Virus record (IMG/VR): IMGVR_UViG_2061766007_001805 | DNA length: 62,391 nt | Reading direction: 5' to 3' (one strand) | DNA from: an uncultured virus (IMG/VR IMGVR_UViG_2061766007_001805) | Taxonomy: Duplodnaviria; Heunggongvirae; Uroviricota; Caudoviricetes | The notes under the pieces: model-generated | Database searches by the model: none | The model's input: the letters and a program-made list of their open reading frames with translations, nothing else | Told to the model about the DNA's origin: nothing | Made by a program: the position numbers and the translations under genes | Shown: piece after piece, positions 321 through 57,451 of the stretch | How the letters are laid out: every line of letters begins with the position of its first letter | Numbering within the stretch: position 1 is the first letter of the stretch

Positions 321-446
321 TTTCAAACATCAGATTTAACATAAATTAATCAATTTTTGGGTTTTCCAACATCATTTAACAAAAATTAATGCAAGTTGCG
401 TTATAAAATCGTTTTGCTGCGAAACAACTTGTCATCGGAGTGACTT

Positions 447-3400
447 ATGGGACAGAAAATAGAACATGGATTTAACAAAACTTAGGATGTTGGCACTCCA
501 ACATCATCACTGAACATACCGGCGTCGTCTATTATCATTCCTGCTCATCCAAAGAAGCGGGTGGAATCGGAAGATGCGGTTGGCGAGCCATTATCTGGAG
601 CATCTGAGCAGACAGAAAATTGTTTTGCTGCGAAACATTAGTTTAATTCGGATTTAACAAATGATGTTGGCAGTCCAACATCATCAACTTGTTTTGCTGC
701 GAAACAACAGGCTGGCACTTCAACATCATCTTCCGGAAATCAGAGGATGTCAGCCGGCAGTCCAACAGGAAATGCGGAGTCTGTGGTTGGTGAGCCTGGG
801 TTGTCAAGTTGTTTTGCTGCAGAACATTAGTTTAATTCGGATTTAACAAATGATGTTGGTGAGCCAACATCATCAAATCGTTCTGCAGCAAAACATCAAG
901 CTGACAGTATCCCAACATCGTCAACAAATTCTGTTGCATCACCCGTGTCTTGCGGAAGTCCAACGTCATTTCGCGGAACATCTGCATCATTTCGCGGAAC
1001 TATACAGTCGGAATCTTCAGCAGAGCAGTCATATTCCGGCACTCCAACATCATCTTACGGAAGTTCTATGGAATCTCGCGGAACCGGAACTGCATTTGGC
1101 GGAGCTGCAACATCATTTGGCGGAAGTTCATCATCATCGGCAGAGTCTGAAGCATCATTAGCAGACTCTGAAGCATCTGCACAGGTTAGTGATGACATTA
1201 CTGCGGATGATGTTGATAGTCCGGTGTCAGACAGTTCCGTATTAAAGCGTAAGCGTGGTCGTGTAAAGGGCAGTGTTTCGTCGAATAAGAGCAGTGGTGC
1301 ATCAAAGAAGATTGGAAAGTACGTATATAGTAAGGATGAAGCGGATGATGAGAAAAACAGTGTGTATGTCGATACAGAGAATTACTTTGACGCAGATCGT
1401 CTTGATGACAATCAGCCGATGAAGCAGGATCGCAAGTTATACAATGAGCCTATTGACATTCCGGATTGTTCTGAAGAGCGTTGGAAGTCTGTATGGAATG
1501 TCTCAGATGAGTACAAGTTGTACATTTCGAATCACGGAAGGGTCCGTATTATACCGGAAATCAAGACTAACAAGCACGGACGTCGTTTTCTCAACATACA
1601 TGGTGTTATGTATCCGATAGATGTGCTTGTAGCGTCTCTGTTCACTACGAATCCTACGAAGTCTGAGTTGGTTATTCACACGGACAGCAGTGTGGGCAAT
1701 GATCGTGCTGACAATCTGTGTTGGGTTCCGAACAAGACTGTTGATTATCCGGTCATCACTATGTGTAATATGACTACGAACACTTATCAGCACAAGTTGT
1801 ATCCGCGTCAGACTGTGGCGTTGATGAAGGATATGATGCACCGTATGATTCTGGACAAGATTCTGGTTCCTCTGATGCCTGGTTTGGCTCGTTGTCAGCG
1901 TCAGGTGATATATGACGGTATTTCTGAAGAGATGAACGATGAGGTTCTTGAGTACATAAGGGAGAAGTATCCGTATATGATGCCTGATGACATAGAGTGG
2001 TTGGGTGACAAGCCGGACAGGTTCAGGAGAAAGTGGAATCATGTGGTTAAGGGTAACAATGAGTACTTGTTGTCTGATGAGGAGTATGCAAGGGCGAAGG
2101 AGAACAAGGTTCAGCAGGTCAAGGACAGGGTGACTGCGTGGAACGAGTACCAGATTATGAGCAATTTGTATGACGGCGGTATAGACGGCGTGAAGTTGGG
2201 TGTGGATGTCGGTCCTTCCGGTGTGTATATGGATGACAGGCATGCGAGGGAGTATGTGGATGATTTGAGGAAGAGCGGTGAGAGCCGTTTGTCTTCGTTG
2301 CAGTACACGGATTTCAACAGGAGAATGAGAGAGCATAACGGTGCATAGCCTGCCAAGAGGTGGAATAACACGGATTTGGATAAAGGTTGTTACGGTGATA
2401 GTGTGAATCGTTCTGCTGCAGAACATCAGGCTGGTTCATCTCAGATGAGCAGTGAGTCTGGTAGCGGTTCGTCTCAGAAGAGCGGTGATTCCGGTCAGAA
2501 GCAGATGACAGCCGGTGACTGGTTCGGCAGTGCGTACGGTGCCGGCGGAATGAGCGGTGCGGTTGAGACTGTGGTGAAGAAGAAGGTGAGTGGTGTTCCT
2601 GATGTAGATGAGAATAATACGGATTTAACAAATGACAGTTATGGTATGTCACAAGCAAATCGTTCTGCAGCAAAACAATTGGCTGATTACTATTATGAAG
2701 ATGAGGATGAAGAAGATGATGATTCTTCTGAAGACAGTCCTGTGAATATCCACATTAATAGAGAAGATAATGAAGATGACAGTCTTGCCGGTCTGTATAG
2801 GGGCGGTAATACGAAGAAAGTGATAAAGATGAAAGAAGATGCTGTGAAGAGACAGCAATAGAGAGAGCAGGAGAATGTGAATTACAAGCGTTCTTCAGGG
2901 CGTGTTATGTTTGACGAATTCAAAGAGTACTTGGGTGGTAAACCTATGACAATGGAAGAGTACAAGAAGAAGCTGGAAGAGTATGAAGAGTTTAGAGAGC
3001 AGGGGTTCATGTATGCTAATTTTGACGAGAGTGTGTTTGAAGGCGGAGTGACTATGTTGGATCACGAGCCGTTGCTGACTCCGAATTAGAGACATGTGAG
3101 GTGGATGCGTGAGAACGGCAAGAGCATTAACGGCACTGTGGTGAAGAGAGACGACACCGGCATAAGATATTTCATTGATGAGAACGGTAAGTGGAGAGTG
3201 ATTATGGAGATTCCTGCGCCTGAGTTGCTGACAATCCGTGGAAAGTGGAATTTTGGCGGGGGAAGAAGGAGTCCGGTTCTGTGCACGTTCCCTAACGGCA
3301 AGGAGATGGTGTTCTGGAGTATAATATGTGCTGCTAAGTACTTGAATTTGGATATTGCGAATATAGTGAATTGTTGTCTTGGTAAGTCATCGATGACTGG

Positions 3401-3767
3401 TGGTATGAAGTTCAGGTATGTGGATGTCAAGGATGAGACGAGAGTCAATGATTTTTATGAAGCAAGATTGGAAGAAGACATAAGGGCATCTGAAGATGAT
3501 GACACTGACGATGAAGATTGCATATATGTTCTGAAACCTAAAATTGATGAGAATGGAAATACTGTGGATAGAAAGAAGGGACGTCCGAAGAAGAGTGAGT
3601 ACAGAAAGTTGTACAAGCCTAAGCAGACTGCCGGTGGTGTTCTGAATGTCATTGACAGAGCATTAGGTGACGTGTTTAGCACTGAAAAGAAGAAAAAGAT
3701 TAAACTGGATGACTATACTCCGACTGAATAGTAGATATAGGATATGCTGGACAGCAGTTTGGGGTGA
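447..3767 (+). CDS. ~1106 aa protein (code 15): Ser-rich repetitive N-terminus, NUMOD4 + degenerate HNH-like domain, acidic linker, NUMOD1-like HTH and AT-hook-like motifs
   Basis: ORFs 945-2348, 2376-2861, 2877-3089 and 3096-3731 share one frame and are separated only by TAG. The frame is open from ATG 447 to TGA 3765-3767. Motifs: ERWKSV...YISNHGRVR (NUMOD4), VLVASLFTTNP...IHTD...NDRADNLCWV (HNH_3-like), FWSIICAAKYL...IVNCCLGK...GGMKFRY (NUMOD1), KKGRPKK. The start codon is uncertain. Confidence 0.7.
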
Positions 3768-3870
3768 TATTCAAATATCCTGAGGAATATTTGAATATTG
3801 GTCGATATTTGAATATCTTGGGGGATATTTGAATATGGCAGGATATTTGAATATCAGATTGGGATATTTC
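3765..3870. repeat. Cluster of imperfect palindromes GATATTTGAATATC (similar clusters at ~13785-13890 and ~22825-22920)
   Basis: About 5 closely spaced copies in each of three non-coding regions. Confidence 0.7.
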
Positions 3871-11624: not shown

Positions 11625-12449
11625 ATGATNNNNNNNNNNNNNNNNNNNNNNNNNNNNNNNNNNNNNNNNNNNNNNNNNNNNNNNNNCTTGGAGATAACAG
11701 ATGATGATATTATAGTAGATAATCCGCTTGAGCAACCATATGATATAAATGCCGTTGATAAACATCTCACATCTTATTATGAACGCTGTCTATTATTAGC
11801 ATTGATATATGAAAAAGATATATATGCTTTAGATTCACATCCGCATATTATCAATTTGCTCAATAAAGTAAAACATTTCCTTGATGTTTACAACATAGAA
11901 TATGAATATGTATTCCGAGACAAATCAAAGGGAATTGGAAATCTGTACTTATATGATGTCGGCGACTTCAGTGTGATTTCATCATACTATCCAGAATCAT
12001 CGTTAAACTACAAAAGCAACAGATACTACAATGGTGTGACTATTGTCATATATATGAGGAAGATACCAAAGTTCACATATAAGGAATCATATCACTTCAT
12101 TCATAGATTATATAATACATTATGGAGATAGTATATGAATTATGATTCCATGAGAATCACAAAATATAAGAACTTATACACTTGGAATGAAATATGTGAT
12201 TTCATGAGAATCACAAATAAGCCGATTTCACTATATGGGGATATTCTGAATGATTCGTGGAAAGATACGTCAATAACATTAAGAGACCTTACAAATCGAC
12301 GAATAATATATAACTTGCCTTATAGGGATTATTTCAAAAAAGCATTACTGTGTTTCCATAACACAGACGAAGACATAATGATAATTGATGACATGTGTAG
12401 TAAACTCAAAAATGGTATTGACCCGTTCAAAAGCAGTAATGTGCATTGA
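11625..12449 (+). CDS. MILNE-family paralog, subfamily C (PY..FFKKA..DPF), spans an N gap
   Basis: In-frame fragments across a TAG; 5' part hidden by Ns. Confidence 0.75.
11630..11686. other. Assembly gap (N run)
   Basis: Run of n characters. Confidence 0.99.
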
Positions 12450-13292: not shown

Positions 13293-14006
13293 CAAGGTGC
13301 TGTTCTTTTTGTTGGATAATATGCAGTTTTACTGAAGAACAATGACAGATGATACCAGCACTCCAATATCATTCTTTTCAGATATTAATCAAATAGAAAA
13401 ACAGATACTAATCAGATACTACGGATACTGCTGGACTTCCAATATCAATCATCTGAACATTTCCCTGAACATTACCCTATTCATTACCCTGAACATTACC
13501 CTAAAGTATTTCCGAGATAAACTTCATTTTTCATACCTGTTTCTCATTTTCAAGATCTTTACGTCTTTATACACTTTTGAACATCCGGCTTCAACTAAAC
13601 AGATACTGCTGATGATAGTGGCAGTCCAACATCATCTCTTGTGATGAAGATATTAAATTGTTCTGTAGCAAAACAATAAGTTAGTTTGGACTGTCAAACA
13701 TCATTCTGCCAAGGTCTTGGGTAATATTCGGGTCGTATGCGGGTAATATTCGGGTCAGATTTGTTTTTTTATGGGTTTTAATAGAATATTTGAATATTAT
13801 GGACGATATTTGAATATTGTCGGATATTTAAATATCTTGGGAAATATTTGAATATTGCCAGATATATGAATATCGGATTTAGATATTTCCGGAGATGACA
13901 TTTCATTATAATTATATGAAAAAGACTGAAGATGAACAGTAGTTGGGCAATAGTATTGGTAGTCCAACAGTCCAACTTCTGCTTACAGCACAAGCAGTTT
14001 GTTGTT

Positions 14007-14903
14007 TCAATGTATAGTTTTACGGAATGTACATGTAGGATAATTACTGCATCCCAGGAAGGGACCGTACTGTCCGTGTTTCCTGATTAGCGTGCTTCCG
14101 CATTTCGGACAGATACCGGCATTGATTTTATCTTCTTTATCTTGTATGGTTGCGTGTATATTGTTGATATGGGTTTTCATAGAAACTTCATTTACAATAT
14201 TATTTGCAGTCAGTAACCGAGCAATCTCCTTTACATCTTCTGGTTGTATATACATTGCTCCATATTCTCTATATTCACGGAATATGTTCAATAATCCGAA
14301 GCCGTCTACGACATGGTATGCTGAACGTATGTTGCTTATGTCCGTATTGCCGACAAAACAGACAACTGGAATTACAGGCAGATTTTTCCAAGCTTTCAAT
14401 TTATTTTTTATAGCATATGTGTGCCCTATTGACTGTTTTACCGGGTTATAGAATTTGTATTTTGTTTTATAGGTATAAGTCTTGAATGGATTGCTTCTAT
14501 AATTCACATCAGTGAGTATTACCTGTGTCCATTCTTCTTGGTTGTCTTGACCGTATATAATTCCTCTGTAATTTTTTGTTTCTATTGCAAATATGCCGTA
14601 TTTTGAGACTACGATATGGTCGATCTGAGACGTAGTTCCATTATTAGTTAACAAGACTACATCATCCAGTATAATGAAACCATTTGGAAGATTCATCAGA
14701 ATGTTATGAACTTGTGCTTCACCGAGCTTGCCCCTGTATTGTGACAAATCAGTGCCAGATTCAGTTTTGGAACATTTATTAACCGATTTTCTCAGGTTAA
14801 AATATAAAATAACCGATAAGAGAAAGCCTATGAGTATTAGTATGTAAAAATACATAGGTATATAATCAAATAGAGCCATAATAGACATACAAATAGTAGA
14901 CAT
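14007..14903 (-). CDS. NERD-domain (nuclease-related) protein with N-terminal membrane anchor and C-terminal topoisomerase-type C4 zinc ribbon
   Basis: GKLGE, SQIDHIVVSKYGIFAIETKNY.G, FYNPVKQ, CPKCG...G.YG.FLGCSNYP.C; upstream TAnnTTTG promoter motif near 14922-14931. Confidence 0.9.
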   Translation of the reverse strand: MSTICMSIMALFDYIPMYFYILILIGFLLSVILYFNLRKSVNKCSKTESGTDLSQYRGKLGEAQVHNILMNLPNGFIILDDVVLLTNNGTTSQIDHIVVSKYGIFAIETKNYRGIIYGQDNQEEWTQVILTDVNYRSNPFKTYTYKTKYKFYNPVKQSIGHTYAIKNKLKAWKNLPVIPVVCFVGNTDISNIRSAYHVVDGFGLLNIFREYREYGAMYIQPEDVKEIARLLTANNIVNEVSMKTHINNIHATIQDKEDKINAGICPKCGSTLIRKHGQYGPFLGCSNYPTCTFRKTIH

Positions 14904-15157
14904 TATTGTTATTAATAGACTACAAAAGTATATAGATTATTTTACAAAAACAAAAATTCAGGAAATCATTATAGATTTTTAACAATATGATGAATATGTT
15001 CTGCAGCAAAACAATTAGTTAGTTTGGATTTCCAACATCATCTCTTGGGTTTCATTTAATTAAGTTGTTTTGCTGCAGAACAATTAGTTATTTCGGATTG
15101 TCAAACATCATTCATAAAAAAGAGCAACTATCAGGAGAGATAATTGCTCTTGTTGTA

Positions 15158-16208: not shown

Positions 16209-16682
16209 TTGTTAAAGTTTCCTAATAATTCAACAGAAATTTTGTAGTTTGAAAAATTTCATATACCTTTGCACTCAGAGAAATGTTAAGTATTCGTATG
16301 TATTCTTTTTTTCCAATAGCACCCCTGCGTGAGCAACGGTGCTATTTTTTTATATTGGACTGTCAGACATCATCTGTTAAAGTTTTCAAATAATTCAACA
16401 GAATTTTTGTAGTTTGAAAAATTTTATATAACTTTGCACTCAGATAAAATACATCGTATTACTCATATGAATTGTTTGGTAGCACTCTTGCGTGAGCAAC
16501 GGTGCTATTTTTATTGGACCTGATATCATCTGTTAAAGTTTCCTAATAATTCAATAGAAATTTTGTAGTTTGTAAAATTTCATATACCTTTGTACTCAGA
16601 GACAGTTAAGTATTCATATGTTATGTTTATAATTTTTTGCTTGCAAATAGCACTCTTGCGTGAGCAACGGTGCTATTTTTTT
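16209..16682 (+). ncRNA. Three tandem small-RNA-like cassettes: Bacteroidetes promoter, ~40-55 nt variable segment, conserved hairpin TAGCAC..TGCGTGAGCAACGGTGCTA-Tn
   Basis: TAnnTTTG motifs at 16264, 16429 and 16585; hairpins at ~16317, 16480 and 16648; no convincing ORF. Confidence 0.55.
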
Positions 16683-21167: not shown

Positions 21168-22772
21168 TTAAAATAAGGATACTTGAAGTTGTTTAACATC
21201 GTCTATTCTATTTGATGCTTTCTTTACCGGTTTCGGCGACTCATAACATCCATCGCATTTGATTTTGAAATTATAATACTTGCCGGTTGATTCACTGATG
21301 ATGTTAAGATTCACATTATCTCCCAAATCGATTAAAGTGAGCAAGTGGTGTAATCTGTCTATTTCTTCAGGTGCTCTTAAAATCAAGTCCACGTTAATTC
21401 TGTCCACATGGGAAAAACATGTTGCAAACATAGGCATATACGTCACAAAAGAAGGTAAGGACTCTACTTCAACGCTAACAGTATCAAAGTCCGTATTCTT
21501 CTGCATAAGGTCATCAAAGACATTCTGCGGTTCTATTGCACAACCTTTATAGCCATTCGATGCAATGTAGAAATTCCCTTCAGTATTCTCCACATTTACA
21601 TTATTCATGAAATCTTCATAATCAAGCAATCTCTTTATCTTGCTTGCTATCGTATAGCCTATATGAGTAGGAACAGCTTCACCTATGCATCTCCTGATGT
21701 TTCCTTCATTTGCCTTCAAGTATTCGTCGGAGTTTTCAACAGTTAATTCAGCATCATGGTCTGTCCATTGAAATGTATTTGGAATTGTCATCAGAGTCAT
21801 AAGTTCCCTAATGCTGAGAACACGATTATCACATGGGTGAATTGTATCTTGCGATGACATAATATCACTCCTGGTTGCAATGCACGCACCGGGTCTGTTC
21901 CATATGAGTCTGCGATACTTATTTCCCATATATGCACCCTTATTGATAATACGATTACCATCTTTGTCAAAAGTACATGGCTTGGTATCGTCCGGATTAT
22001 CAAAGGCTGTCTCTCCTTCTTTTAAGTCCTTTATCCAGGCAAGCATATACTCAGGGAAAGGACGTGCAAAATGGAAAGGATCGTGTTTATCTTTCTCTCC
22101 AAAAGCAAGACGTGGAAAACTGCCAATGGAATCTCTGAGCAAAATCTCATTCTTTCTTGTCGGAAATAAATCAAGGGGCATAACATGGTGGAGTTCACGG
22201 CTTGTACCAATCACAAGTGTTCTTGGTCTGCTTGATGGAACGCCATAATCCTTGAAATTAATTATCTTCCAATAAATGTTATAATATTCAGACAGATTAT
22301 TAAATATGCAATCCCTTATAGTCATATCTTGACCGGATATGTCTGTGCAAATGGATTTCATAAATGCACGGACATTCTCGAACACAAAGACTTTAGGATG
22401 GATTGTCATAATCATCCTAATAGCTTCGACGACAAGAGAGTTTCTGATCTGCTCATGTTCATTCTTCTTATAGTTAGCCGTTGACATGCCTTGACATGGG
22501 GGTGTAGCGAACACTACATCAACTTGTTGTAGGTTATGCTTATCTCGCCACATCTGTATTTCATCCATAATCATTTGATGTGTTTCCGGAGATGTTGCAT
22601 CACCGCAGATATAACCGCTTTCGTAACGGCATTTGTGATTGGCACGTTGTACTGATATTCTGGATTCCTGTAATTCATTGGATGCTATGCACTCGAAATC
22701 GTTCATTTTGAAGCCGTAGCATCCTACACCGGCACAACTGAAAAGTGATATGTAAGTTCTTGTCATATACAT
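21168..22772 (-). CDS. C5 cytosine DNA methyltransferase (orphan; start may be 22766)
   Basis: Motif I SLFSCAGVG, catalytic PPCQG, FENV, RPRT, R.LS.RE, GEAVP. Confidence 0.92.
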   Translation of the reverse strand: MYMTRTYISLFSCAGVGCYGFKMNDFECIASNELQESRISVQRANHKCRYESGYICGDATSPETHQMIMDEIQMWRDKHNLQQVDVVFATPPCQGMSTANYKKNEHEQIRNSLVVEAIRMIMTIHPKVFVFENVRAFMKSICTDISGQDMTIRDCIFNNLSEYYNIYWKIINFKDYGVPSSRPRTLVIGTSRELHHVMPLDLFPTRKNEILLRDSIGSFPRLAFGEKDKHDPFHFARPFPEYMLAWIKDLKEGETAFDNPDDTKPCTFDKDGNRIINKGAYMGNKYRRLIWNRPGACIATRSDIMSSQDTIHPCDNRVLSIRELMTLMTIPNTFQWTDHDAELTVENSDEYLKANEGNIRRCIGEAVPTHIGYTIASKIKRLLDYEDFMNNVNVENTEGNFYIASNGYKGCAIEPQNVFDDLMQKNTDFDTVSVEVESLPSFVTYMPMFATCFSHVDRINVDLILRAPEEIDRLHHLLTLIDLGDNVNLNIISESTGKYYNFKIKCDGCYESPKPVKKASNRIDDVKQLQVSLF

Positions 22773-23118
22773 ACATTATGATTAATATCTAAAAATTATA
22801 TTTTTATTTATATAGTTTTTCTTTAATAATATCAGATATTTGGATATCCATAACAATATTTAAATATCTGGTAATATCTGAATATCTAATAATATCCGGA
22901 TATCAGATTCTGATATATTTGGACATAATATATCACGGTCTATTATTTCTGCAGCAAAACAAGTGGTTTTTGTTTGGACTGCCAGACATCATCTATACAA
23001 CAATAAGAAAAAGAGCACTATCCTCACGGACCGTGCTCCTCACTTTTTTAACTTCTAAATTTGAATATATATTTCAATCTTTTCTATATATTATACTGCC
23101 GTATTTCAAAAAAGTTTT

Positions 23119-23883: not shown

Positions 23884-24269
23884 CTGTATATGGATAAATC
23901 GGTTTCATTATTTATTCTTAATTGACTGGTAAATGGCTTTTACTACGCTTCAGGTTTAAAAACGGCAGTTTATCACGGATATTCTGTAGAATCATATAAG
24001 AGCTTTGATAGTTGCTGTCCCGGTTCCAACATCATCTCTTGAGTTTCATTTGATTAAGTTGTTTTGCTGCAGAACAATTAGTTAGTTTAGAAATTCAACA
24101 TATTAAAGAAGGTAACGATATACGTGTTGACACATTTTAATTCATATATATTTGATTGACAACTGATTGTGTTGTATTTTGTATTTAATTATTCATATAT
24201 TTGATTTTCATATAAATTGTTTGTTGATTTCAGAATTTTTTTGTAACTTTGCCTGCAAATAAAATTTAT

Positions 24270-25385
24270 ATGATACAGGCTTACAGATATAAGATATTAC
24301 CTGATGCTCAACAGAAAGTTGTTTTATCTAACTTTTTCGGTTGTGCAAGATTCATATATAACTGGGGTTTGAATATAAAGACTAAAGAATACGAGACAAG
24401 CAAGAAAAGTGTCTCATATAATCAACTTGCTAAAGAACTCACTCAACTCAAGAAGAAAGAACAATATTCATGGTTGAATGATGTAACTGTAGAATCTCTA
24501 CAGCAGTCTTTACGGAATCTTGAAACTGCTTTTTCCAAATTCTTTAAGAAAGAAGCAGAATATCCTCAGAAGAAAAAGAAGAGAAAATGCAAAGACTCTG
24601 TGAAATTCATTAGGAATATCCATTTTGATTTCAATAAATGGATGGTTAAACTACCGAAGATTGGTTGGGTGAGTCTTTGCAAGAACAGGATGTTTGATAC
24701 AAACTCATGTAAAACCGGAACTTGTACTGTCAGCAGAGATGCTTGCGGTGAATATTGGTGTTCTATCTTAGTGGATGACAAGCATATTGCTCCGATGAAA
24801 GCCAAATTGGAGAAAGATAATGCAGTCGGCATCGATTTGGGCATCAAAGACTATGCTATACTCTCTGACGGTATCAAGTTCCATAATCCGAAATATCTTG
24901 AGAGAACAAGTCGGAAACTCACATGGACACAGAGGTCTTTTTCAAGAAAGACTAAAGGTTCAAAGAACAGAGAGAAACAGAAGACTAAACTCCTGAAGTA
25001 TTACAGACTTGTCACTAACCAGAGAATTGACTATCTTCATAAGGTTTCCACGGAAATTGTCAGAAATTACAATACAATATGTATTGAAGATCTGAATGTG
25101 GACGGTATGATGAAGAATCATAAACTGGCAAGAAGCATACAGTCTGCAAGTTGGAGTGAGTTCAGAAGGATGTTAGAGTATAAGTCTGAGTGGTATGGTA
25201 AAAATCTGCTTGTCATCGGCAGGTTTGAACCAAGCAGCAAGACTTGTAATAAATGCGGATACATCAAGAAAGACTTGACATTGAAAGACAGAGAATGGAT
25301 ATGTCCTGTATGCGGAGAACATCATGACAGAGATGTTAATGCTGCAAGAAATATCTTGGATATGTCTTTTAAAAATGTGAAATAA
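24270..25385 (+). CDS. tnpB: TnpB RNA-guided endonuclease (IS200/IS605 OrfB family), 371 aa
   Basis: AYRYKI.P...FGCARFIYNWGL HTH; RuvC GIDLG, IEDL and DRDVNAARNI; SSKTC..C / CPVCG zinc finger; TAACTTTG promoter motif at 24244. Confidence 0.95.
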   Translation: MIQAYRYKILPDAQQKVVLSNFFGCARFIYNWGLNIKTKEYETSKKSVSYNQLAKELTQLKKKEQYSWLNDVTVESLQQSLRNLETAFSKFFKKEAEYPQKKKKRKCKDSVKFIRNIHFDFNKWMVKLPKIGWVSLCKNRMFDTNSCKTGTCTVSRDACGEYWCSILVDDKHIAPMKAKLEKDNAVGIDLGIKDYAILSDGIKFHNPKYLERTSRKLTWTQRSFSRKTKGSKNREKQKTKLLKYYRLVTNQRIDYLHKVSTEIVRNYNTICIEDLNVDGMMKNHKLARSIQSASWSEFRRMLEYKSEWYGKNLLVIGRFEPSSKTCNKCGYIKKDLTLKDREWICPVCGEHHDRDVNAARNILDMSFKNVK

Positions 25386-50118: not shown

Positions 50119-50234
50119 CTGTATATGGATAAATCAGTTTCATTATTTATTCTCTGGTAAGATGATGTTCGGTACTTCAAGCATCTCTTGAAAGTGATTT
50201 GATAATATTGTTCTGTAATGAAACTATTGGCTTG

Positions 50235-50452
50235 TCAGTTAAATAAACTTAAATAATTGTGTGAATTATTGTATTGTGGTTTATTATTCATACCTTTGTA
50301 TCAGCAAAAGCAACGAACCTCAGTCTATACACATCGGCTGATTAAGTCTAAGATACTGGAACTGATGCAGTTAAGTGTGGAATAAAGAAACTGGTTGGTG
50401 AAAGTTGCTGAATTGAATGTACTGTTATTCAATTATATAGTGATATATTGGA
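50235..50452 (+). promoter_or_regulatory. CRISPR leader with Bacteroidetes promoter (TACCTTTG at 50291); homologous leaders at ~52778-52998, 54681-54893 and 56303-56520
   Basis: Four alignable copies, each directly 5' of an array. Confidence 0.8.
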
Positions 50453-51966
50453 GTCTATACAGTGTCATTATTTCTACTTTATGTAGATTCTTCGAGTACT
50501 TCGAACAACAAACGGAGTCTATACAGTGTCATTATTTCTACTTTATGTAGATATGATTGTATTTTGTTTAAGTTGTTTCAAGTCTATACAGTGTCATTAT
50601 TTCTACTTAAATGCCTACTTCCGTAGGTTGTAGATTCTGCAAGAAGCCTCTTTACACGATTCGTCTATACAGTGTCATTATTTCTACTTTATGTAGATCC
50701 GCAAACAACACATCTGTACAGACCGAGTATATACAGTGTCATTATTTCTACTTCATGTAGATCAATAAGATCTTCCATAGAGACTGTGGAAGTATATACA
50801 GTGTCATTATTTCTACTTTATGTAGATGAAAACCAAACTTAAAAAATAGAGTATAAAGTATATACAGTGTCATTATTTCTACTTTATGTAGATGAATATC
50901 TCTATGAGAGCCGGTCTATACAGTATCATTATTTCTACTTCATGTAGATCTGTGATATTCGCCTTGTATGGTGAATGTAGTTTATACAGTATAATTATTT
51001 CTACTCAAATGCCTACTTCAGTAGGTTGTAGATGTGGCATTGGTTGCCGTTTTCTGTATGTGTCTATACAGTATCATTATTTCTACTTCATGTAGATATG
51101 AGCAATGACATCACTGTACCAATTAAGTCTATACAGTGTCATTATTTCTACTTCATGTAGATGCAAGTGATATGGTTATCTTGATTTGTGAGTCTATACA
51201 GTGTTATTATTTCTACTTAAATGCCTACTTCCGTAGGTTGTAGATGCAATGTAAAGATTGTATCAGACTCTAACGTCTATACAGTATCATTATTTCTACT
51301 TCATGTAGATATATTGACTTCTCGCAAAACAAATTATGTCTATACAGTGTCATTATTTCTACTTAATGCTCACTTCCGTGGGTGTGTAGATCAGTACGGT
51401 CATGACTTGACAGAAGAAGGTATCCTACAATATCATTATTTCTACTTCATGTAGATTATAATATTATATAGCGTCTATACAGTGTCATTATTTCTACTTA
51501 ATGTAGATAAAAAATGCTAGTATAATTTTCAGAAGAGTCTATACAATATCATTATTTCTACTTAATGCCTATTTCCGTAGGTTGTAGATGTCGTCATTAT
51601 ATCACTCACTCTGGTCTTCAGATCTATATAATATCATTATTTCTACTTCATGTAGATCATTGTCCTTTGATTCCAGCAAGATGACCGAATTCTTTAAGAA
51701 TATATACAACAGTATAATTATTTCTACTTAATGCCTATTTCCGTAGGTATGTAGATGTGGGCACTTATCCTGAGAAAGTAGCGGTGTCTATACAGTGCCA
51801 TTATTTCTACTTCATGTAGATTTCTGCTTTCTTTCCGTTGAATATCCTTTGTATATACAGTATCATTCATTTCTACTTAAATGCCTACTTCTGTAGGTAT
51901 GTAGATATGTAATATTCGCCGCCTTTGTGTGAGAACTCAAGACAATATCATTCGTTTCCACTTAAT
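50453..51966 (+). CRISPR. CRISPR array 1, Cas12a-type repeat GTCTATACAGTGTCATTATTTCTACTTTATGTAGAT; 22 repeats / 21 spacers; 7 long-loop repeat variants
   Basis: 36-nt repeats with mostly 27-30 nt unique spacers; 3' ATTTCTAC-loop-GTAGAT matches the type V-A crRNA handle. Confidence 0.93.
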
Positions 51967-52591
51967 GCTGGCACTACCATAAGTCACGTACTAATGCTTC
52001 CTTCCGTAGATAAGGATACTTAAGGAAATCGGTTACATCTGCTATATAGAACCCCCAGTTCGTAAGGTTATAATGTTTTTTTATCAATTCGAGATTAGAA
52101 ATATTCAAGTCGGTGTTCCTGTTAATCTTAGCTATCTGTTGGGCGATGTTGCTGATGAATCTACAAGCAAAACTATATGAATGGGCTGTCGGGAGATTGA
52201 GAAATATCACCATTCTCAGATTGTTACTGATTTCATTCAAATCCCTATACTTCGTTATCAACTTATAACCATACAGGTCAAATAAATTACAAGATTTGTA
52301 TCTTTCTTTAATACATATATACGAATGTGTCTGCAGAGTAGGCTATGAGTATTCTATTCCGTATACATTGAATATGTATTGAAGTCTCTTGACGATATGT
52401 GATATTCTATCTACCGAGTGCTTGTCTTTTATTTTAACATCAAAACCCAAACAATGACTGTACTTTGACTGCATGTCTATGTACCATTCTTCCGGACTGT
52501 TATACTCATTACCGACAATGTCGTCATCATGAGTTATAATGTCGTCATCGGTCAGTTTCAAATCATCAAAGTAGTCTTCGTTCAATCTCAT
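51962..52591 (-). CDS. MILNE-family paralog, 209 aa (code 15); stop codon lies inside the last CRISPR repeat
   Basis: TAGs at 52343 and 51974; TAA at 51962-51964. Confidence 0.8.
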
Positions 52592-52998
52592 CTGTATATG
52601 GATAAAGTATTTTCATTATTTATTCTTCAGTAGGATGATGCCCGGTAATTTACCATAACTGCGTTAGCTGCTATAAAAACAGCAGTTTATTATGGAAGAC
52701 AAAAAAACGGTCCGGCACTTCAACTACATCTCTTGATAGTGATTTGATGATATTGTTCTATAACAAAACGATTGAATTGTCAGTTAAATAAACTTAAATA
52801 ATTGTGCAATGTTATTGTATTGTGGTTTATTATTCATACCTTTGTAGCATCAAAAGCAATGAACCTCAGTCTCTACATAATTGCTGAATTCAGATAAGAT
52901 AATGAAACTGAATGAGTTAATTAAAAATGTGGAAAATCAGCAGGTAAAAGTTGCTGAAGATGATGTGCTGTTATTCAATTATATAGTGATATATTGGA

Positions 52999-53767
52999 GT
53001 CTATACAGTGTCATTCATTTCTACTAATGTAGATCGGGATTGTCGCCCCATACACGTGATGTAGTCTATACAGTGTCATTCATTTCTACTAATGTAGATA
53101 TTGATGAAATAATAATACAGATTCATGTCTATACAGTGTCATTCATTTCTACTAATGTAGATTGAGAATTCTTAATGAGTTTGCCCTCAAGTCTATACAG
53201 TGTCATTCATTTCTACTAATGTAGATGGTTTGTTAATTATGTCTATACAGTGTCATTATTTCTACTTTATGTAGATACAACGGAATAATCCTTAATGTGA
53301 ATTGTTAAGACAGTGTTATTATTTCTACTTAATACCTACTTCCGTAGGTTGTAGATACCTATTCATCTCCATGTACGTTATTTAGTCAAGACAGTATAAT
53401 TATTTCTACTAATGTAGATGAATTGAATAGTCTATTGATACGTCTATGCAGTATAATTATTTCTACTTAATGCCTACTTCCGTAGGTATGTAGATACAAC
53501 GGAATAATCCATAATGTGAATTGTTAAGACAGTGTTATTATTTCTACTTAATACTTACTTATGTATGTTGTAGATAAGCATCACCTTGAAATCGTGTCTA
53601 TACAGTATCATTATTTCTACTTCATGTAGATGCGGTTATGATAGTCAAATGATGACATTGTCTATACAGTATCATTATTTCTACTTAATGCCTACATCCG
53701 TAGGTTGTAGATTGGTACCACAAAACGCTCATGACACATGTATATACAGTATCATTATTTCCACTTA
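52999..53767 (+). CRISPR. CRISPR array 2, 12 repeats / 11 spacers
   Basis: Repeat GTCTATACAGTGTCATTCATTTCTACTAATGTAGAT and variants, 4 of them long-loop. Confidence 0.92.
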
Positions 53768-54517
53768 TTGCTCAATTCCATAAGTAGTTCTCTGATTCTT
53801 TGCAAATAGACATCCGAGTACACAATCTCTATCGTGCTCATTCAACACTTGCTTGTAGAAACTGTTATAGTCATTGAATGATTTAGCATCACTGCCGTAC
53901 ACATTTATCTCTTCTTCATATGTACTGTAATAATAACCGCCGTCTATGGAAAAGAGGTTTACAAGGAAATCATCACGTTTGAAGATAGTCTTTGTTAGAT
54001 AGTAAAGAAATTTCATTCCCTGCTGTATTGTATTGAAATCAGGCATATTGAAATGCATATAAAGTACATACCAGCGTGATTCATATTCCCCATTAGTTCT
54101 CTTGATTTGAGTATCTTTACATGCAAGGTGTATGTATCCGTAGTCATATATGTTGTAATTCGGTATGGAATGACCATCTATTTCAACCGTGTTGTCATAA
54201 TCTTCTTCATACGTGTCTATCAAGAATAGTTCGGAGTGTTCTATTCCGTATGTGTCGAACAGATTGTATAGCATAGTCTATATCTTCTTTACAGTGACCG
54301 GATTTATATCATGGCTTAACGCTTCACGATTTGAAATTTTGAAATCAATACACAATCTGTCAGTGTAATGTTTCTCACAGTACAGAATATATTCATATCC
54401 GGACTGGAAGTTTTTATGTGATTTAATAAACATATCTTCACCAACAGTGCTGTCTGAAGACGTAATGTCGTCATCAGTCAATTTCAAATCATTAAAGTAG
54501 TCTTCTTTTAATATCAT
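53765..54517 (-). CDS. MILNE-family paralog, 250 aa (code 15); stop codon inside the last repeat
   Basis: One TAG at 54278. Confidence 0.85.
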
Positions 54518-54893
54518 CTGTATATAGATAAAGTGGTTTCATTATTTATTCTCTCTGTATGATGTCCGGTAATTTTCCGTAACTACGCTTCAGGTTAAAA
54601 AACAGCAGTTTATTGTGGAAACATAAAAGAAGCCAGTCCGGTAATTTGGCTACATATATTCTGTAATGAAACAATTGGCTTGTCAGTTAAATAAACTTAA
54701 AATATTATCCAATAATATTATATTGTGATTTTATATTTGTACCTTTGTAACAGCAATAGCAACAAACATCAGTCTATATACATCGGCTGATTAAGCCTAA
54801 GATACTGGGACTGACACAGTTAAGTGTAGAATAATGGAACTGGTGAATAAAAGTTGCTGAATCGAATGTGCTGTTATTCAGTTACTTAGCAGT

Positions 54894-55230
54894 ATTCTGA
54901 CAGTATCATTATTTCTACTTAAATGCCTACTTCCGTAGGTATGTAGATTAAATCTCTGTCTTTTTGCAGAATCTTCTGTCAAGACAGTATCATAATTTCT
55001 ACTTAAATGCTTACATTCGTAGGTCGTAGATACTTACTCGTCGCCATGCACGTCATTTAGTCAAGACAGTATAATTATTTCTACTTAATGTAGATCTTTG
55101 GGCGAACTCATCAAGAAAGCCTTTGTCAAGACCGTATCATTATTTCTACTTAATGTAGATAACAACGTTTAATAAAAACTTCAGTCAAGACAGTATCATT
55201 ATTTCTACTTAATGCCTACTTCCGTAGGTC
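54894..55230 (+). CRISPR. CRISPR mini-array 3, 5 repeats / 4 spacers
   Basis: GTCAAGACAGTATCATTATTTCTACTTAATGTAGAT variants, 3 of them long-loop. Confidence 0.88.
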
Positions 55231-55274
55231 GGAAAACAGTTCTTCAGTTTCATATGATGTTGTCCATGAGTTCA

Positions 55275-55997
55275 TCAATTATCTGATGTGAATTGATCGG
55301 AGATGAACATATTAAGTCTTCTTAGTATGGTTTCATCCGGTGCGATTGAAGTATAGTTCATATATTCTTTTTGGTTTATATGAAAACCGTACTGCGACTC
55401 TGGTTGAAAAATGTTATTAACAACCATCTTATTCGGATCCTGTATATAAAGTGTGTACATATTGAAAATTTTTCTATATGATTCGTTGTTCCATAAACAT
55501 TTCATAATGGCATTGATGAACTTGCATGCTTCTGAATACTTATGTACTTTGGGCAAGTCTAAGAACATCATAACACACATCTCCCATTGTGTGATGCAGT
55601 TGCGTTTGTATTCTTCCATACTATTGTATGGCGTAACGAACTTGTAACCGCGGAAGTCGATAAAGTTACAATGGGCATAATCTTCATCCCTTCTCAAATA
55701 ATAATGCCGTAGTACTGGTTCAGAGTAATCTATTCCGTATACATCGAATATATAGTGAAGCTTCTTGAGAATAGACGGTATCACATTATCCCATATGTAA
55801 TATTGTTTTTCCGATAAGATTTTGTTGCCGTCTTTCTCTAACCTGATAAGCAGACAGTGGCTGTACTTGGATTTCATATCCCTGTACCATTTTTCCGGAT
55901 TCCTGTATTCGACAGCAACAGGCAGGTTGTCTGATGAAGACTCTATGTCATCGTCAGTGATTTTATTGTCATCAAAGAAATCTTCGTTCAATCTCAT
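55275..55997 (-). CDS. MILNE-family paralog, 240 aa
   Basis: Intact ORF; the family C-terminal remnant (KLKNCFP) continues past TGA into the last repeat. Confidence 0.85.
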   Translation of the reverse strand: MRLNEDFFDDNKITDDDIESSSDNLPVAVEYRNPEKWYRDMKSKYSHCLLIRLEKDGNKILSEKQYYIWDNVIPSILKKLHYIFDVYGIDYSEPVLRHYYLRRDEDYAHCNFIDFRGYKFVTPYNSMEEYKRNCITQWEMCVMMFLDLPKVHKYSEACKFINAIMKCLWNNESYRKIFNMYTLYIQDPNKMVVNNIFQPESQYGFHINQKEYMNYTSIAPDETILRRLNMFISDQFTSDN

Positions 55998-56072
55998 CTG
56001 TATATGGATAAAGTAGTTTCATTATTTATTCTTCAGTAAGATGATGTCAGGTACTTCAACTGCATCTCCCTA

Positions 56073-56182
56073 TACCATATTTCCGGATTAGTGCATTCGA
56101 CAGCAGTAGTCTGGTTGTCTGATGAAGACTCAATGCTATCGTCAGTGATTTTATTATCAAATAGGTATTCGTTCAATAACAT
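56073..56182 (-). pseudogene. Degraded 5' fragment of a family gene (copy of the start of 55275-55997)
   Basis: MLLNEYLFDNKITDD-like start with the conserved upstream motif, then breaks off. Confidence 0.7.
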
Positions 56183-56520
56183 CTGTATATGAATAAAATA
56201 TTTTCATTATTTATTTTTCGGTAATATGATATCAGGTACTTCAACCGTATCTCTTGATAGTGAATCGGTGATATTGTTCTGTAATAAAACAATTGGCTTT
56301 AAGAGTTAAATAAACTTAAATACTTGTGTGATGTTATTGCATTGTGGTTTTATATTTGTACTTTTGTATCAGCAAAAGCATCAAGCCTTAGCATCTACAC
56401 AATTGCTTGAGTATGTTTAATATATTAAGACTGAAAGAGTTAATTGGAAATGTGGAAAACTGGTGAGTAAAAGTTGCTGAATAGAGTGTACTGTTATTCA
56501 GTTACTTAGCAGTATTCTGA

Positions 56521-56848
56521 GTCAATATAGTATAATTATTTCTACTTTATGTAAATCGAGAATCCGTTCCAACCACTACGGCGAGTCAAAATAGTATAAT
56601 TATTTCTACTTAATACCTACCTCCATAAGTGTAGGTCGTAGATAGGTCCTCAATGCACTTGTGGTCAGTAATGTCTATACAGTGTTATTATTTCTACTTC
56701 ATGTAGATTATCGATGATAATCATCTTCTATAAGTCTATACAGTATAATTATTTCTACTTAATGCCTACATCCGTAGGTTAGGTATGTAGATGAAAGGTG
56801 ATTGGTGAAGCATATGTACTGTCTATACAATATCATTATTCTTACTTA
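56521..56848 (+). CRISPR. CRISPR mini-array 4, 5 repeats / 4 spacers
   Basis: Same handle; 2 long-loop variants. Confidence 0.85.
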
Positions 56849-57451
56849 AAAGTCTTCTTCAGTAAGATCCACTCTCATTGAATATACTCCGACTGTTTGA
56901 ATTTCCTGAGTTGCATATGACTCAAACTGGTAAACTGGTTCAGTTTCGGAATCAGCACCCATAATGTATGTCACAAGACCTTCAGTGAAATAACTGTCAT
57001 CCGACTTGCTATCACGTAATGCGGATAGTGCGAGAGATGCACTGTGTGGCGGGAAATCTCCAGGGAATACACATCCGAAGAACGGACTATCCGTAACATC
57101 AACTGTTATATCACTGAGACTTGAGTCAGAGAACCAGACGAACAGTGTAGGTGCATTCATATATCCTTCACCGTCATGCTGAAGGATTGTGTACACACCG
57201 TGACACTCTTTTCCGTGTTCTTTGTCTATCAGGACAGATACAGTGCCGTCTTCTTCAGAGTCCTGCTTTACGTACCAGCCTTGAAACTCATACAGCAATA
57301 CAAGTTGTCCCGGATAATTGTCATTTGCCCAGCGACGTACCATGACATTCATTTTGTAAAGCAGGTCATTGAAATCAGCAGTGACCGGTGTGTCATAGTG
57401 CAGTTCAGGTTCATTGTCTGTGCCTAATACAAGATGATTGTTAGCTTCCAT
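56846..57451 (-). CDS. Hypothetical acidic protein, 201 aa (MEANNH...), unrelated to the family; stop codon inside the last repeat of array 4
   Basis: ATG at 57451 after an A-rich leader; the extra 48 aa in the ORF track come from the MITE and UTR. Confidence 0.75.
   Translation of the reverse strand: MEANNHLVLGTDNEPELHYDTPVTADFNDLLYKMNVMVRRWANDNYPGQLVLLYEFQGWYVKQDSEEDGTVSVLIDKEHGKECHGVYTILQHDGEGYMNAPTLFVWFSDSSLSDITVDVTDSPFFGCVFPGDFPPHSASLALSALRDSKSDDSYFTEGLVTYIMGADSETEPVYQFESYATQEIQTVGVYSMRVDLTEEDF

Follow-up and report, generated by a model that had tools for sequence, protein, structure and literature searches.

Cas12a-type CRISPR repeats with a predicted hairpin nested in the handle loop in DNA of an uncultured virus

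Can the handle of a Cas12a-type repeat hold a second hairpin in its loop and still serve as a handle? [quoted passage not shown] A preliminary description of the sequence had read the long repeats as a possible second functional class of CRISPR RNA (crRNA), for example one with an aptamer-like loop. The reading that we favour, and which we hold to be about an even call, is that the long repeats may be working, Cas12a-compatible handles with a tolerated, self-folding loop insert that was expanded from a palindrome and spread by recombination.

Long and short repeats in four arrays

Four CRISPR arrays lie on the + strand and contain 40 complete and four terminal, degenerate or truncated repeats (44 in all):

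50453-51984, + strand: array 1, with 14 short and 7 long repeats that are complete (21), ended by a decayed repeat of the long type, 51936-51984
52999-53785, + strand: array 2, with 7 short and 4 long repeats that are complete (11), ended by a decayed repeat of the long type, 53740-53785
54894-55229, + strand: array 3, with 2 long repeats followed by 2 short ones, all complete (4), ended by a truncated repeat of the long type, 55184-55229
56521-56867, + strand: array 4, with short and long repeats in alternation from a short one on, 4 of them complete, ended by a decayed repeat, 56821-56867

The short repeats (n = 25; 35-36 nt) read TCTAC, a loop of 4-5 nt that includes the first U, and GTAGAT. 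The handle UCUAC-N(4-5)-GUAGAU is exact in 24 of them, the exception at 56521 ending in GUAAAU. Type V-A arrays have repeats close to 36 nt and spacers in the range of some 26-30 nt, dimensions that these units share; handle motif and spacer length fit the type V-A description in PMC7757703 and support the Cas12a-type label first given to the repeats. The complete long repeats (n = 15; 53-59 nt) share with the short ones the 5' part, ATTTCTACT and GTAGAT, and are extended by 17-23 bases that follow the first T of the loop and precede its last base. The resulting loop of 22-28 nt takes them outside the loop length of the Cas12a-type motif, with both arms kept. Individual long repeats differ as follows:

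50582..50635, + strand: long repeat of consensus form, inner stem GCCTAC/GTAGGT, loop TTCC
50980..51033, + strand: long repeat, inner loop TTCA
51192..51245, + strand: long repeat of consensus form
51338..51391, + strand: long repeat with a compensatory U-A to C-G change and a C-G to U-G change, exact in contigs of two other samples (X4 and X5, below)
51537..51589, + strand: long repeat, C-G to U-G at the pair closing the inner loop
51703..51756, + strand: long repeat, U-G variant as in 51537
51851..51906, + strand: long repeat, inner loop TTCT, extra C before the handle
53304..53356, + strand: long repeat, outermost inner-stem pair A-U instead of G-U
53442..53495, + strand: long repeat of consensus form, its handle preceding the second copy of a candidate spacer against trans-activating crRNA (tracrRNA), described below
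53523..53575, + strand: long repeat with decayed inner hairpin (one U-U mismatch, altered loop), outer handle intact
53660..53712, + strand: long repeat, inner loop ATCC
54894..54948, + strand: long repeat at the leader end of array 3
54978..55031, + strand: long repeat, C-G to U-G, inner loop ATTC
56585..56643, + strand: extra-long repeat, old 3' arm decayed to ATAAGT, a second GTAGGT copy pairing instead, 10-nt loop
56734..56792, + strand: extra-long repeat, partial extra copy of the inner 3' arm (TAGGTA)

The terminal repeat 55184-55229 contains the insert and the inner hairpin and lacks the outer 3' arm, while those at 51936, 53740 and 56821 align with the long type through the insert, after which the outer arm is lost. 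Since all four terminal repeats are of the long type, the long form is as old as the arrays. The initial count of 16 long repeats among 44 is reproduced by the 15 complete ones plus the truncated copy at 55184. The start given for the feature, 50582, is indeed a long repeat; the arrays themselves begin at 50453, and three more terminal repeats belong to the long type. Likewise, the copy at 51338-51391 does read CTCAC-TTCC-GTGGG as first described, its U-A to C-G double change being accompanied by a C-G to U-G change, and the longer form noticed in array 4 is the ACCTAC-(10 nt)-GTAGGT of 56585-56643.

Where does the insert come from? Compared with the outer handle, A-UUUCUAC-loop-GUAGAU, the insert AAUG-CCUAC-UUCC-GUAGG-U has the AAU lead, the first loop U and the closing U in common, and its inner stem has the five pairs of the outer one, except that C-G stands for U-A at one of them. 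We read the insert as a probable diverged copy of the handle's own palindrome, not as foreign sequence. Further slippage of the inner 3' arm appears in 56585 (ATAAGT-GTAGGT) and 56734 (GTAGGT-TAGGTA). A resemblance of the insert to the nexus of a tracrRNA was also considered; only one hexamer is common to the two, which we judged to be chance.

In all seven long handles that were folded alone, the nested hairpin within an intact outer stem is the predicted minimum-energy structure (-7.1 to -12.9 kcal/mol; z-scores of -2.3 to -3.75 relative to shuffled sequences); for the decayed copy at 53523, only a shorter inner stem is predicted. Across the 13 regular long repeats of our alignment (A3), the outer helix and handle are invariant (13 of 13), and they are intact in all 15 complete long repeats. 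The extra hairpin with a preserved outer stem thus holds up as proposed. The inner helix is paired in 98.6% of cells, with one double-changed pair, three pairs with a one-sided, wobble-preserving change and one unpaired cell. Every one-sided change, whether C becomes U opposite G or G becomes A opposite U, preserves pairing only in RNA of the + strand, which is the crRNA strand. Folding and covariation analysis, which the preliminary description had called for across related phages, yielded here nested folds, near-complete pairing and compensatory changes; statistically, the covariation within the window is weak, 42 of 500 column shuffles reaching the observed score and 458 falling below it.

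Variation is unevenly distributed along the long repeats. Mean pairwise difference is 0 in the 5' handle, 0.035 in the 5' linker, 0.18 in the inner 5' arm, 0.25 in the inner loop, 0.05 in the inner 3' arm, 0.18 in the 3' linker and 0 in the outer 3' arm, and about 0.35 in the 5' part that is discarded. Within the handle, variation peaks in the inner loop (three of four columns vary in the 13 copies, and one further copy has a 10-nt loop), which argues against an aptamer read by its sequence. The Cas12a handle is strictly kept, the inner stem moderately kept and the inner loop free. Copy 53523, a duplicate of 53304, differs from it at four positions, all within the 16-nt hairpin, with one pair lost.

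How the two forms came to be mixed can be traced in part. Comparison of the discarded 5' repeat parts gives the same degree of difference between short and long classes (0.35) as inside either class (0.34-0.37), which indicates two forms mixed by recombination, not two lineages. In array 2, the unit 53277-53356 is duplicated as 53496-53575, a segmental duplication within the array. Long and short repeats are interspersed in all four arrays, as first noticed; the preliminary description held that simple leader-end duplication fails to predict such a pattern, and segmental duplication and recombination, exemplified by this unit, account for it. The four leader-end repeats of array 2 (52999-53226) are identical to one another and unlike all older repeats in having an extra C before the handle and a 4-nt loop, the pattern expected of recent leader-end acquisition. 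Spacers are mostly 27-30 nt long, with a median of 28 behind short and behind long repeats alike and outliers of 14, 16, 20, 20, 22, 25, 32 and 45 nt; all are unique except for one duplicate.

Each array is preceded by a leader of about 225 nt, a sequence confined to the four arrays and on average about 82% alike over 250 nt:

about 50225-50452 and about 52772-52998 (joint span 50225..52998), + strand: leaders 1 and 2, conserved pre-array sequence
about 54667-54893 and about 56294-56520, + strand: leaders 3 and 4, conserved pre-array sequence

TAC(C/T)TTTG is present in each of the four leaders and fits what we take to be the Bacteroides -7 promoter box; a promoter and terminator consensus scan gave no excess over shuffled sequences, and an Rfam search of 50300-57000 gave no match at E-values up to 1. 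At their other ends, the arrays run, with their terminal repeats, into the 3' ends of genes on the opposite strand. We also considered whether the hairpin insulates the handle from mispairing with the spacer. The idea found no support in a test that was not decisive: in natural context the predicted probability of the outer stem is 0.72 in long and 0.89 in short repeats, and mispairing between arm and guide shows no clear difference between long and short handles (p = 0.09).

The stretch recurs in bovine-gut sequencing runs, parts of it in 20 runs from 12 studies, with no RNA run among those that cover the array region. Four runs were compared with it, namely X1, possibly the source sample, and X4, X5 and X6, which come from other studies; Logan contigs of the repeat arrays are fragmented, and many fit two places. 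Positions 51340-51502, including the long repeat with the compensatory change, recur exactly in contigs of X4 and X5 and with three differences in X6, and 56490-56683, including an extra-long repeat, recurs in an X5 contig with four differences. In X4, long repeat 51851 is followed by a different spacer; in an X1 contig, two long repeats flank a new 29-nt spacer; and a long-type repeat of X6 has the inner stem CATAC...GTATG, a second double change that keeps a pair. Position 56615 is A in the window and G in X4, X5 and X6 (A-U versus G-U). Because independently assembled contigs from three other studies hold long repeats, these repeats are real and not an assembly artefact.

Comparable natural repeats were not found where we looked. 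A survey of 69,117 arrays with TCTAC-N(1-8)-GTAGA reports loops of 3-5 nt, most commonly 4, longer loops lying outside its search (PMC7757703). At least three Cas12a-type repeats are carried by 19 of 401 sampled Bacteroidales genomes, and in 15 Bacteroidales arrays that were extracted, all 187 repeats have a 4-nt loop. Matches to long-gap repeats in the 401 Bacteroidales and 401 Clostridia genomes were single, scattered and at the level of the reversed-pattern control, so that no long-loop Cas12a repeat was seen among these 802 sampled genomes. The long-repeat pattern gave no match in IMG/VR and two in JGI metagenomes, both within unrelated coding DNA. A 20-nt repeat pattern gave none in IMG/VR and, with one genome for each of 185,579 species, 20 single chance matches, none of them in an array; no host repeat identical or nearly identical to those of the window came out of this species scan. 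The closest repeat seen, in a Bacteroidales genome (G258), has its first 10 nt and the handle arms in common with the window repeats. Comparison of the arrays with cultured phages by blastn returned nothing at an E-value of 1e-5 and only chance pieces at 10, and the literature that we searched, a limited collection without supplementary tables, contained engineered loop extensions and no natural nested-loop repeat. The initial remark that no natural repeat of this layout had been described is in line with this literature, with the 802 genomes and with both collection scans. We suggest, on sequence grounds, that the nested-hairpin layout is a new natural variant of the type V-A repeat.

One guide behind both handles and its predicted target

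Do the long repeats precede guides that could work? Targets were sought by blast searches of the arrays, initially against the family of the G258 genome and then against the 401 Bacteroidales genomes. A single recurrent match emerged, to spacer 53277-53303, which is also the spacer that the segmental duplication has placed behind both forms of repeat:

53277..53303, + strand: candidate anti-tracrRNA spacer, copy 1, behind short repeat 53241; 26 of 27 bases match, TTTC protospacer-adjacent motif (PAM)
53496..53522, + strand: candidate anti-tracrRNA spacer, copy 2, behind long repeat 53442; an extra mismatch at position 16 (25 of 27), positions 1-15 intact

Among 29 loci that were extracted, copy 1 matches 24 at 26 of 27 bases and the other five at 25 of 27. 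Spacer positions 1-18 are identical in 29 of 29 loci, and TTTC lies directly 5' in 28, giving a T-rich PAM for the one spacer with a known target. When the host version is taken and a single mismatch allowed, the PAM together with bases 1-24 occurs in 99 of the 401 Bacteroidales genomes, as against none for the reversed control. The site lies 60-150 nt upstream of the start of a Cas9-like open reading frame (MKKILGLDLGTNSIGWA). Pfam detects the Cas9 bridge helix or alpha-helical lobe in three of six N-terminal pieces of this frame, and the full frame of one locus (L100) matches TIGR01865 (Cas9) with 470 bits. In five of five loci with an array, the target element is complementary to the CRISPR repeats of the same locus (-25 to -28 kcal/mol). 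On the strand opposite to cas9, the alignment has the target element followed by a G+C-rich hairpin and a T run; the Rfam tracrRNA model matches the same strand and place weakly, at 18.6 bits and an E-value of 2.4, far below its gathering score. We conclude from these sequence features that the target is, in all likelihood, the tracrRNA gene of Bacteroidales type II-C Cas9 loci, the spacer covering the anti-repeat end and the next hairpin.

The guide is identical to the cas9-sense strand and so also complementary to the tracrRNA itself; its orientation and the side of the PAM fit predicted DNA targeting by Cas12a. The target is carried by five of the 19 genomes with V-A arrays, a proportion similar to that among the others (94 of 382), which means that hosts with both systems exist. 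A cas12a gene lies beside the V-A arrays in four of five genomes checked. We propose that at least one guide of the window may serve counter-defence against host type II-C CRISPR-Cas9.

Two of the loci present arrangements of their own. On contig 14 of genome G376 (L100, L108), the order tracrRNA-cas9-(RAYT-like gene)-cas1 is followed, about 700 nt on, by an array of five Cas12a-type repeats, and no cas12a was found within 12 kb on either side of that array or elsewhere in this genome. In G362 (L056), of the same family as G258, a tracrRNA-like element without a following cas9 lies between an rRNA (ribosomal RNA) operon (23S, 5S) and a tyrosine integrase gene, perhaps as an orphaned remnant.

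In two cases, spacers of different arrays are related as a pair. Spacers 53357-53384 and 55032-55059 have six differences, five of which recur with a period of three bases, as synonymous codon changes would, and spacers 53163-53190 and 55096-55124 overlap on opposite strands (16 of 18 bases). By their sequence, both pairs point to real acquisition from what would be diverged alleles of coding targets. The targets of the pairs were not found in cultured phages, in the 401 Bacteroidales genomes or in ten type II-C loci, and a degenerate pattern for the pair 53357/55032 returned nothing from IMG/VR. In the same ten loci (5-12 kb), no spacer besides 53277/53496 has a match; other matches of the arrays in the 401 genomes occurred singly, did not exceed chance, or fell into AT-rich DNA of leaders and gene starts. 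No spacer matches the window outside the arrays. Conversely, 183 spacers from Bacteroidales V-A arrays have no target in the window, the longest match being 16 nt.

What the nested hairpin may do

The favoured reading starts from what the long repeats keep, namely every handle part that is read by Cas12a: AUUUCUACU on the 5' side, the first U of the loop, and GUAGAU as the 3' arm. The insert would have arisen by expansion of the handle palindrome through slippage or template switching, an origin suggested by the slippage products of the inner 3' arm in 56585 and 56734, and would have spread among the four arrays by recombination and segmental duplication. A Cas12a, encoded by the host or elsewhere on the phage, would cut upstream of each handle, short or long, and load both; the nested hairpin would project from the solvent-exposed handle loop, and crRNAs with long handles would guide like those with short ones, perhaps less efficiently. 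Selection would mainly keep the insert paired with itself, such that it disturbs neither the handle pseudoknot nor the outer stem. As no species-representative genome has this repeat, we slightly favour a Cas12a encoded elsewhere on the element over that of a host. That long units look functional follows from the presence of the same guide behind a short and a long repeat, this guide having a PAM-flanked protospacer. In addition, the handle loop of ErCas12a crRNA is described as solvent-accessible, and extensions of 5 nt, of 10 nt and by an MS2 hairpin as tolerated at lower activity (PMC11031708).

Several observations weigh against so simple an account. The same engineered loop extensions lowered activity, and a passenger without cost is thus not assured. 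In none of the four arrays has one form displaced the other. Next to a variable inner loop, the AAU directly before the inner stem does not vary, a hint of stronger constraint than a passenger would require. In the terminal repeat 55184 and a relative of it in X6, the inner hairpin is kept without the outer 3' arm, the X6 hairpin with a compensatory change. Spacers behind long repeats have a higher G+C content than those behind short ones (0.41 versus 0.33; Mann-Whitney p = 0.022, one of four tests), a difference that does not survive correction for the four tests. Finally, we infer loading by Cas12a with no effector seen in the 62-kb window: a search for cas families in 53 open frames of at least 120 amino acids (TAG read as Q) matched none of the 53 and found TnpB only. 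This negative covers the window, the element itself being larger.

In another reading, the nested hairpin would mark a second functional class of crRNA, as the preliminary description had supposed, by docking a phage protein, by sorting guides between two effectors, or by favouring binding over cutting. The effectors could, for example, be host Cas12a and a phage-encoded type V nuclease; some V-A loci are reported to carry a further type V effector with the crRNA motif in common (PMC7757703). We regard such a class as possible and, on balance, unlikely. Pairing of the inner stem is kept through change, with one compensatory and three wobble pairs in the window and another compensatory pair in X6, and one-sided changes are tolerated only where RNA of the + strand stays paired. 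The invariant AAU before the inner stem, the survival of the inner hairpin beyond the outer 3' arm in 55184, the mix of about one long to two short repeats that persists in all four arrays and in other samples, and the higher G+C content behind long repeats all fit a dedicated role. Yet the handle varies most in the inner loop, which has 10 nt in one copy; the inner stem has decayed in 53523; covariation is weak; one guide is common to both kinds of repeat; the G+C difference is lost on correction; and no partner protein or second effector was identified in the window. More doubtful still is the fuller picture of a recoded Bacteroidales phage that carries a CRISPR-against-CRISPR weapon with two kinds of handle on purpose, in which the nested hairpin would give one guide in three a different fate (another effector, recruitment of a protein, or binding without cutting).

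Alternatively, the long units might be dead or decoys, the insert blocking Cas12a or an inner pseudo-handle being bound instead, to make a sponge like RNA anti-CRISPRs; a guide produced from the pseudo-handle would begin with the constant UGUAGAU and find no target. The inner unit does retain a handle layout (AAU, a 5-bp stem with one covarying pair, the first loop U), phage repeat mimics that inhibit Cas proteins are known (PMC10651486, PMC11656645), and engineered loop extensions lower activity (PMC11031708). We nonetheless consider this improbable: spacers behind long repeats are unique and of normal length (median 28 in both classes), one of them copies a guide with a PAM-flanked target and has positions 1-15 intact, and the outer handle, which a decoy does not need, is intact in 15 of 15 complete long repeats. 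Moreover, use of the inner handle in 53442 would amount to self-targeting, as the RNA so produced matches an array of the phage itself, beside TTTA at repeat 53241. Hardly credible, lastly, is an assembly artefact or a region that is not a CRISPR array. The N run at 11630-11686, the metagenomic origin of the sequence and the fragmented, doubly placeable Logan contigs would speak for it; against it stand exact contigs, from runs of three other studies, that span long repeats and flanking spacers, 16 copies with individual differences, regular spacing, conserved leaders and a PAM-flanked protospacer for one spacer.

The carrier element and comparison with known systems

The window codes poorly under genetic code table 11. 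With TAG read through, it contains 57 frames of at least 150 amino acids, most of about 250 amino acids and many with one to three in-frame TAGs; TAG is a sense codon in the carrier element. We infer from the TAG recoding that the carrier is a phage-like element, and it probably infects Bacteroidales. No structural gene and no transfer RNA, suppressor included, was found within the 62 kb, and no cas12a, cas4, cas1 or cas2 gene lies beside the arrays within this span. About 48 genes (4058-61609; e.g. 55275-55997, - strand) form one paralog family of about 250 amino acids that starts with M-(I/L/R)-L-(N/K)-E-D-Y-F-D-D. Each of them has a conserved upstream region, and the four arrays sit between family members. 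The family has no match in Pfam, PHROG or NCBIfam and no locus in IMG/VR, searched by single protein or by profile; 33 related clusters were found, all from ENA/Logan metagenomes and none of them named. Genes outside the family include:

24228-25385, + strand: IS200/IS605-type TnpB, NCBIfam 407 bits; no in-frame TAG, unlike most neighbours
14007-14936, - strand: NERD nuclease-like protein with topoisomerase-type zinc ribbon
21168-22775, - strand: C5 DNA methylase with a long C-terminal extension
444-3767, + strand: low-complexity protein of 1107 amino acids, HNH/NUMOD motifs; 9 in-frame TAGs, which must be read through for the frame to be open

The TnpB gene may be a recent arrival from a genome with the standard code. 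Elsewhere in the window lie a 165-bp tandem repeat (2.4 copies, 16210-16600), two arrays of an 18-20/38-nt repeat built on ATATTTGAATAT (3766-3869 and 13786-13874), and a run of 57 N, an assembly gap, at 11630-11686.

How do these arrays relate to known systems? They resemble canonical type V-A arrays, as far as these are characterized in the accessible text of PMC7757703, in the 36-nt repeat with a hairpin at its 3' end, identical stem arms, the first loop U and an A upstream of the stem, and also in spacers of 27-30 nt and in the one protospacer with a TTTC PAM; the short repeats of the window are ordinary members of this group. They differ from it in that the loop of 16 of 44 repeats measures 22-28 nt and contains a 6-bp stem, and in having no cas12a or adaptation gene within 62 kb. 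The extra hairpin in the handle loop, with the stem kept, is shared with engineered ErCas12a crRNAs, whose tolerance is put down to solvent access of the loop (PMC11031708). Unlike these, which are synthetic and reported to edit less, the insert in the window is natural, was probably copied from the palindrome of the handle, and stands beside short repeats within the same array. If Cas12a accepts the long units, nature has placed a structured insert where engineers add aptamers to a Cas12a guide, and 16 natural variants show what this site tolerates; the same guide behind both handles would then be a clean natural experiment on the effect of loop inserts on processing, loading and cutting.

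Arrays of huge phages (PMC7162821) are likewise phage-borne; they often come without cas genes and are thought to use host Cas proteins. Some of their spacers match host intergenic regions, and silencing of host CRISPR systems or non-coding RNAs has been floated as their role. They have a median of six repeats per array, and the accessible text of that study describes no anti-tracrRNA spacer or two-form repeat. With RNA anti-CRISPRs (Racrs; PMC10651486, PMC11656645) the window shares phage-encoded repeat mimics that would engage host Cas proteins; unlike Racrs, described there as single repeats without a functional spacer, it has four arrays of 4-21 spacers, unique and with one PAM-flanked target. 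Phage CRISPR arrays against host defence islands (PMC11656645) and phage crRNA-like RNAs against cas promoters (10.1101/2024.10.29.618823) are already in print, as far as these sources are accessible; a Cas12a-type guide against a Cas9 tracrRNA gene was not reported in the literature that we searched. Cracr arrays (Cas-repressing RNA anti-CRISPRs; 10.1101/2024.10.29.618823), of which CracrVA1 is a type V-A example, consist of viral crRNA-like units that hijack host Cas proteins. They too sit on mobile elements and direct guides against a host CRISPR-Cas locus; their repeat-spacer units come without cas genes, of which the 62-kb window likewise has none. Cracrs, as outlined in the accessible text, have two to three spacers per array with short partial matches to the cas-gene promoter of the same system, whereas the arrays of the window have up to 21 spacers, and the anti-tracrRNA guide, in place of a short PAM-proximal match to a cognate cas promoter, has a 26/27 match to what is probably the tracrRNA gene of another CRISPR type. 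The 24-nt target core and PAM are conserved in a quarter of the sampled Bacteroidales genomes, which points to the host range of an uncultured, recoded rumen phage lineage, and the spacer offers a concrete and testable case of a phage turning one CRISPR type on another.

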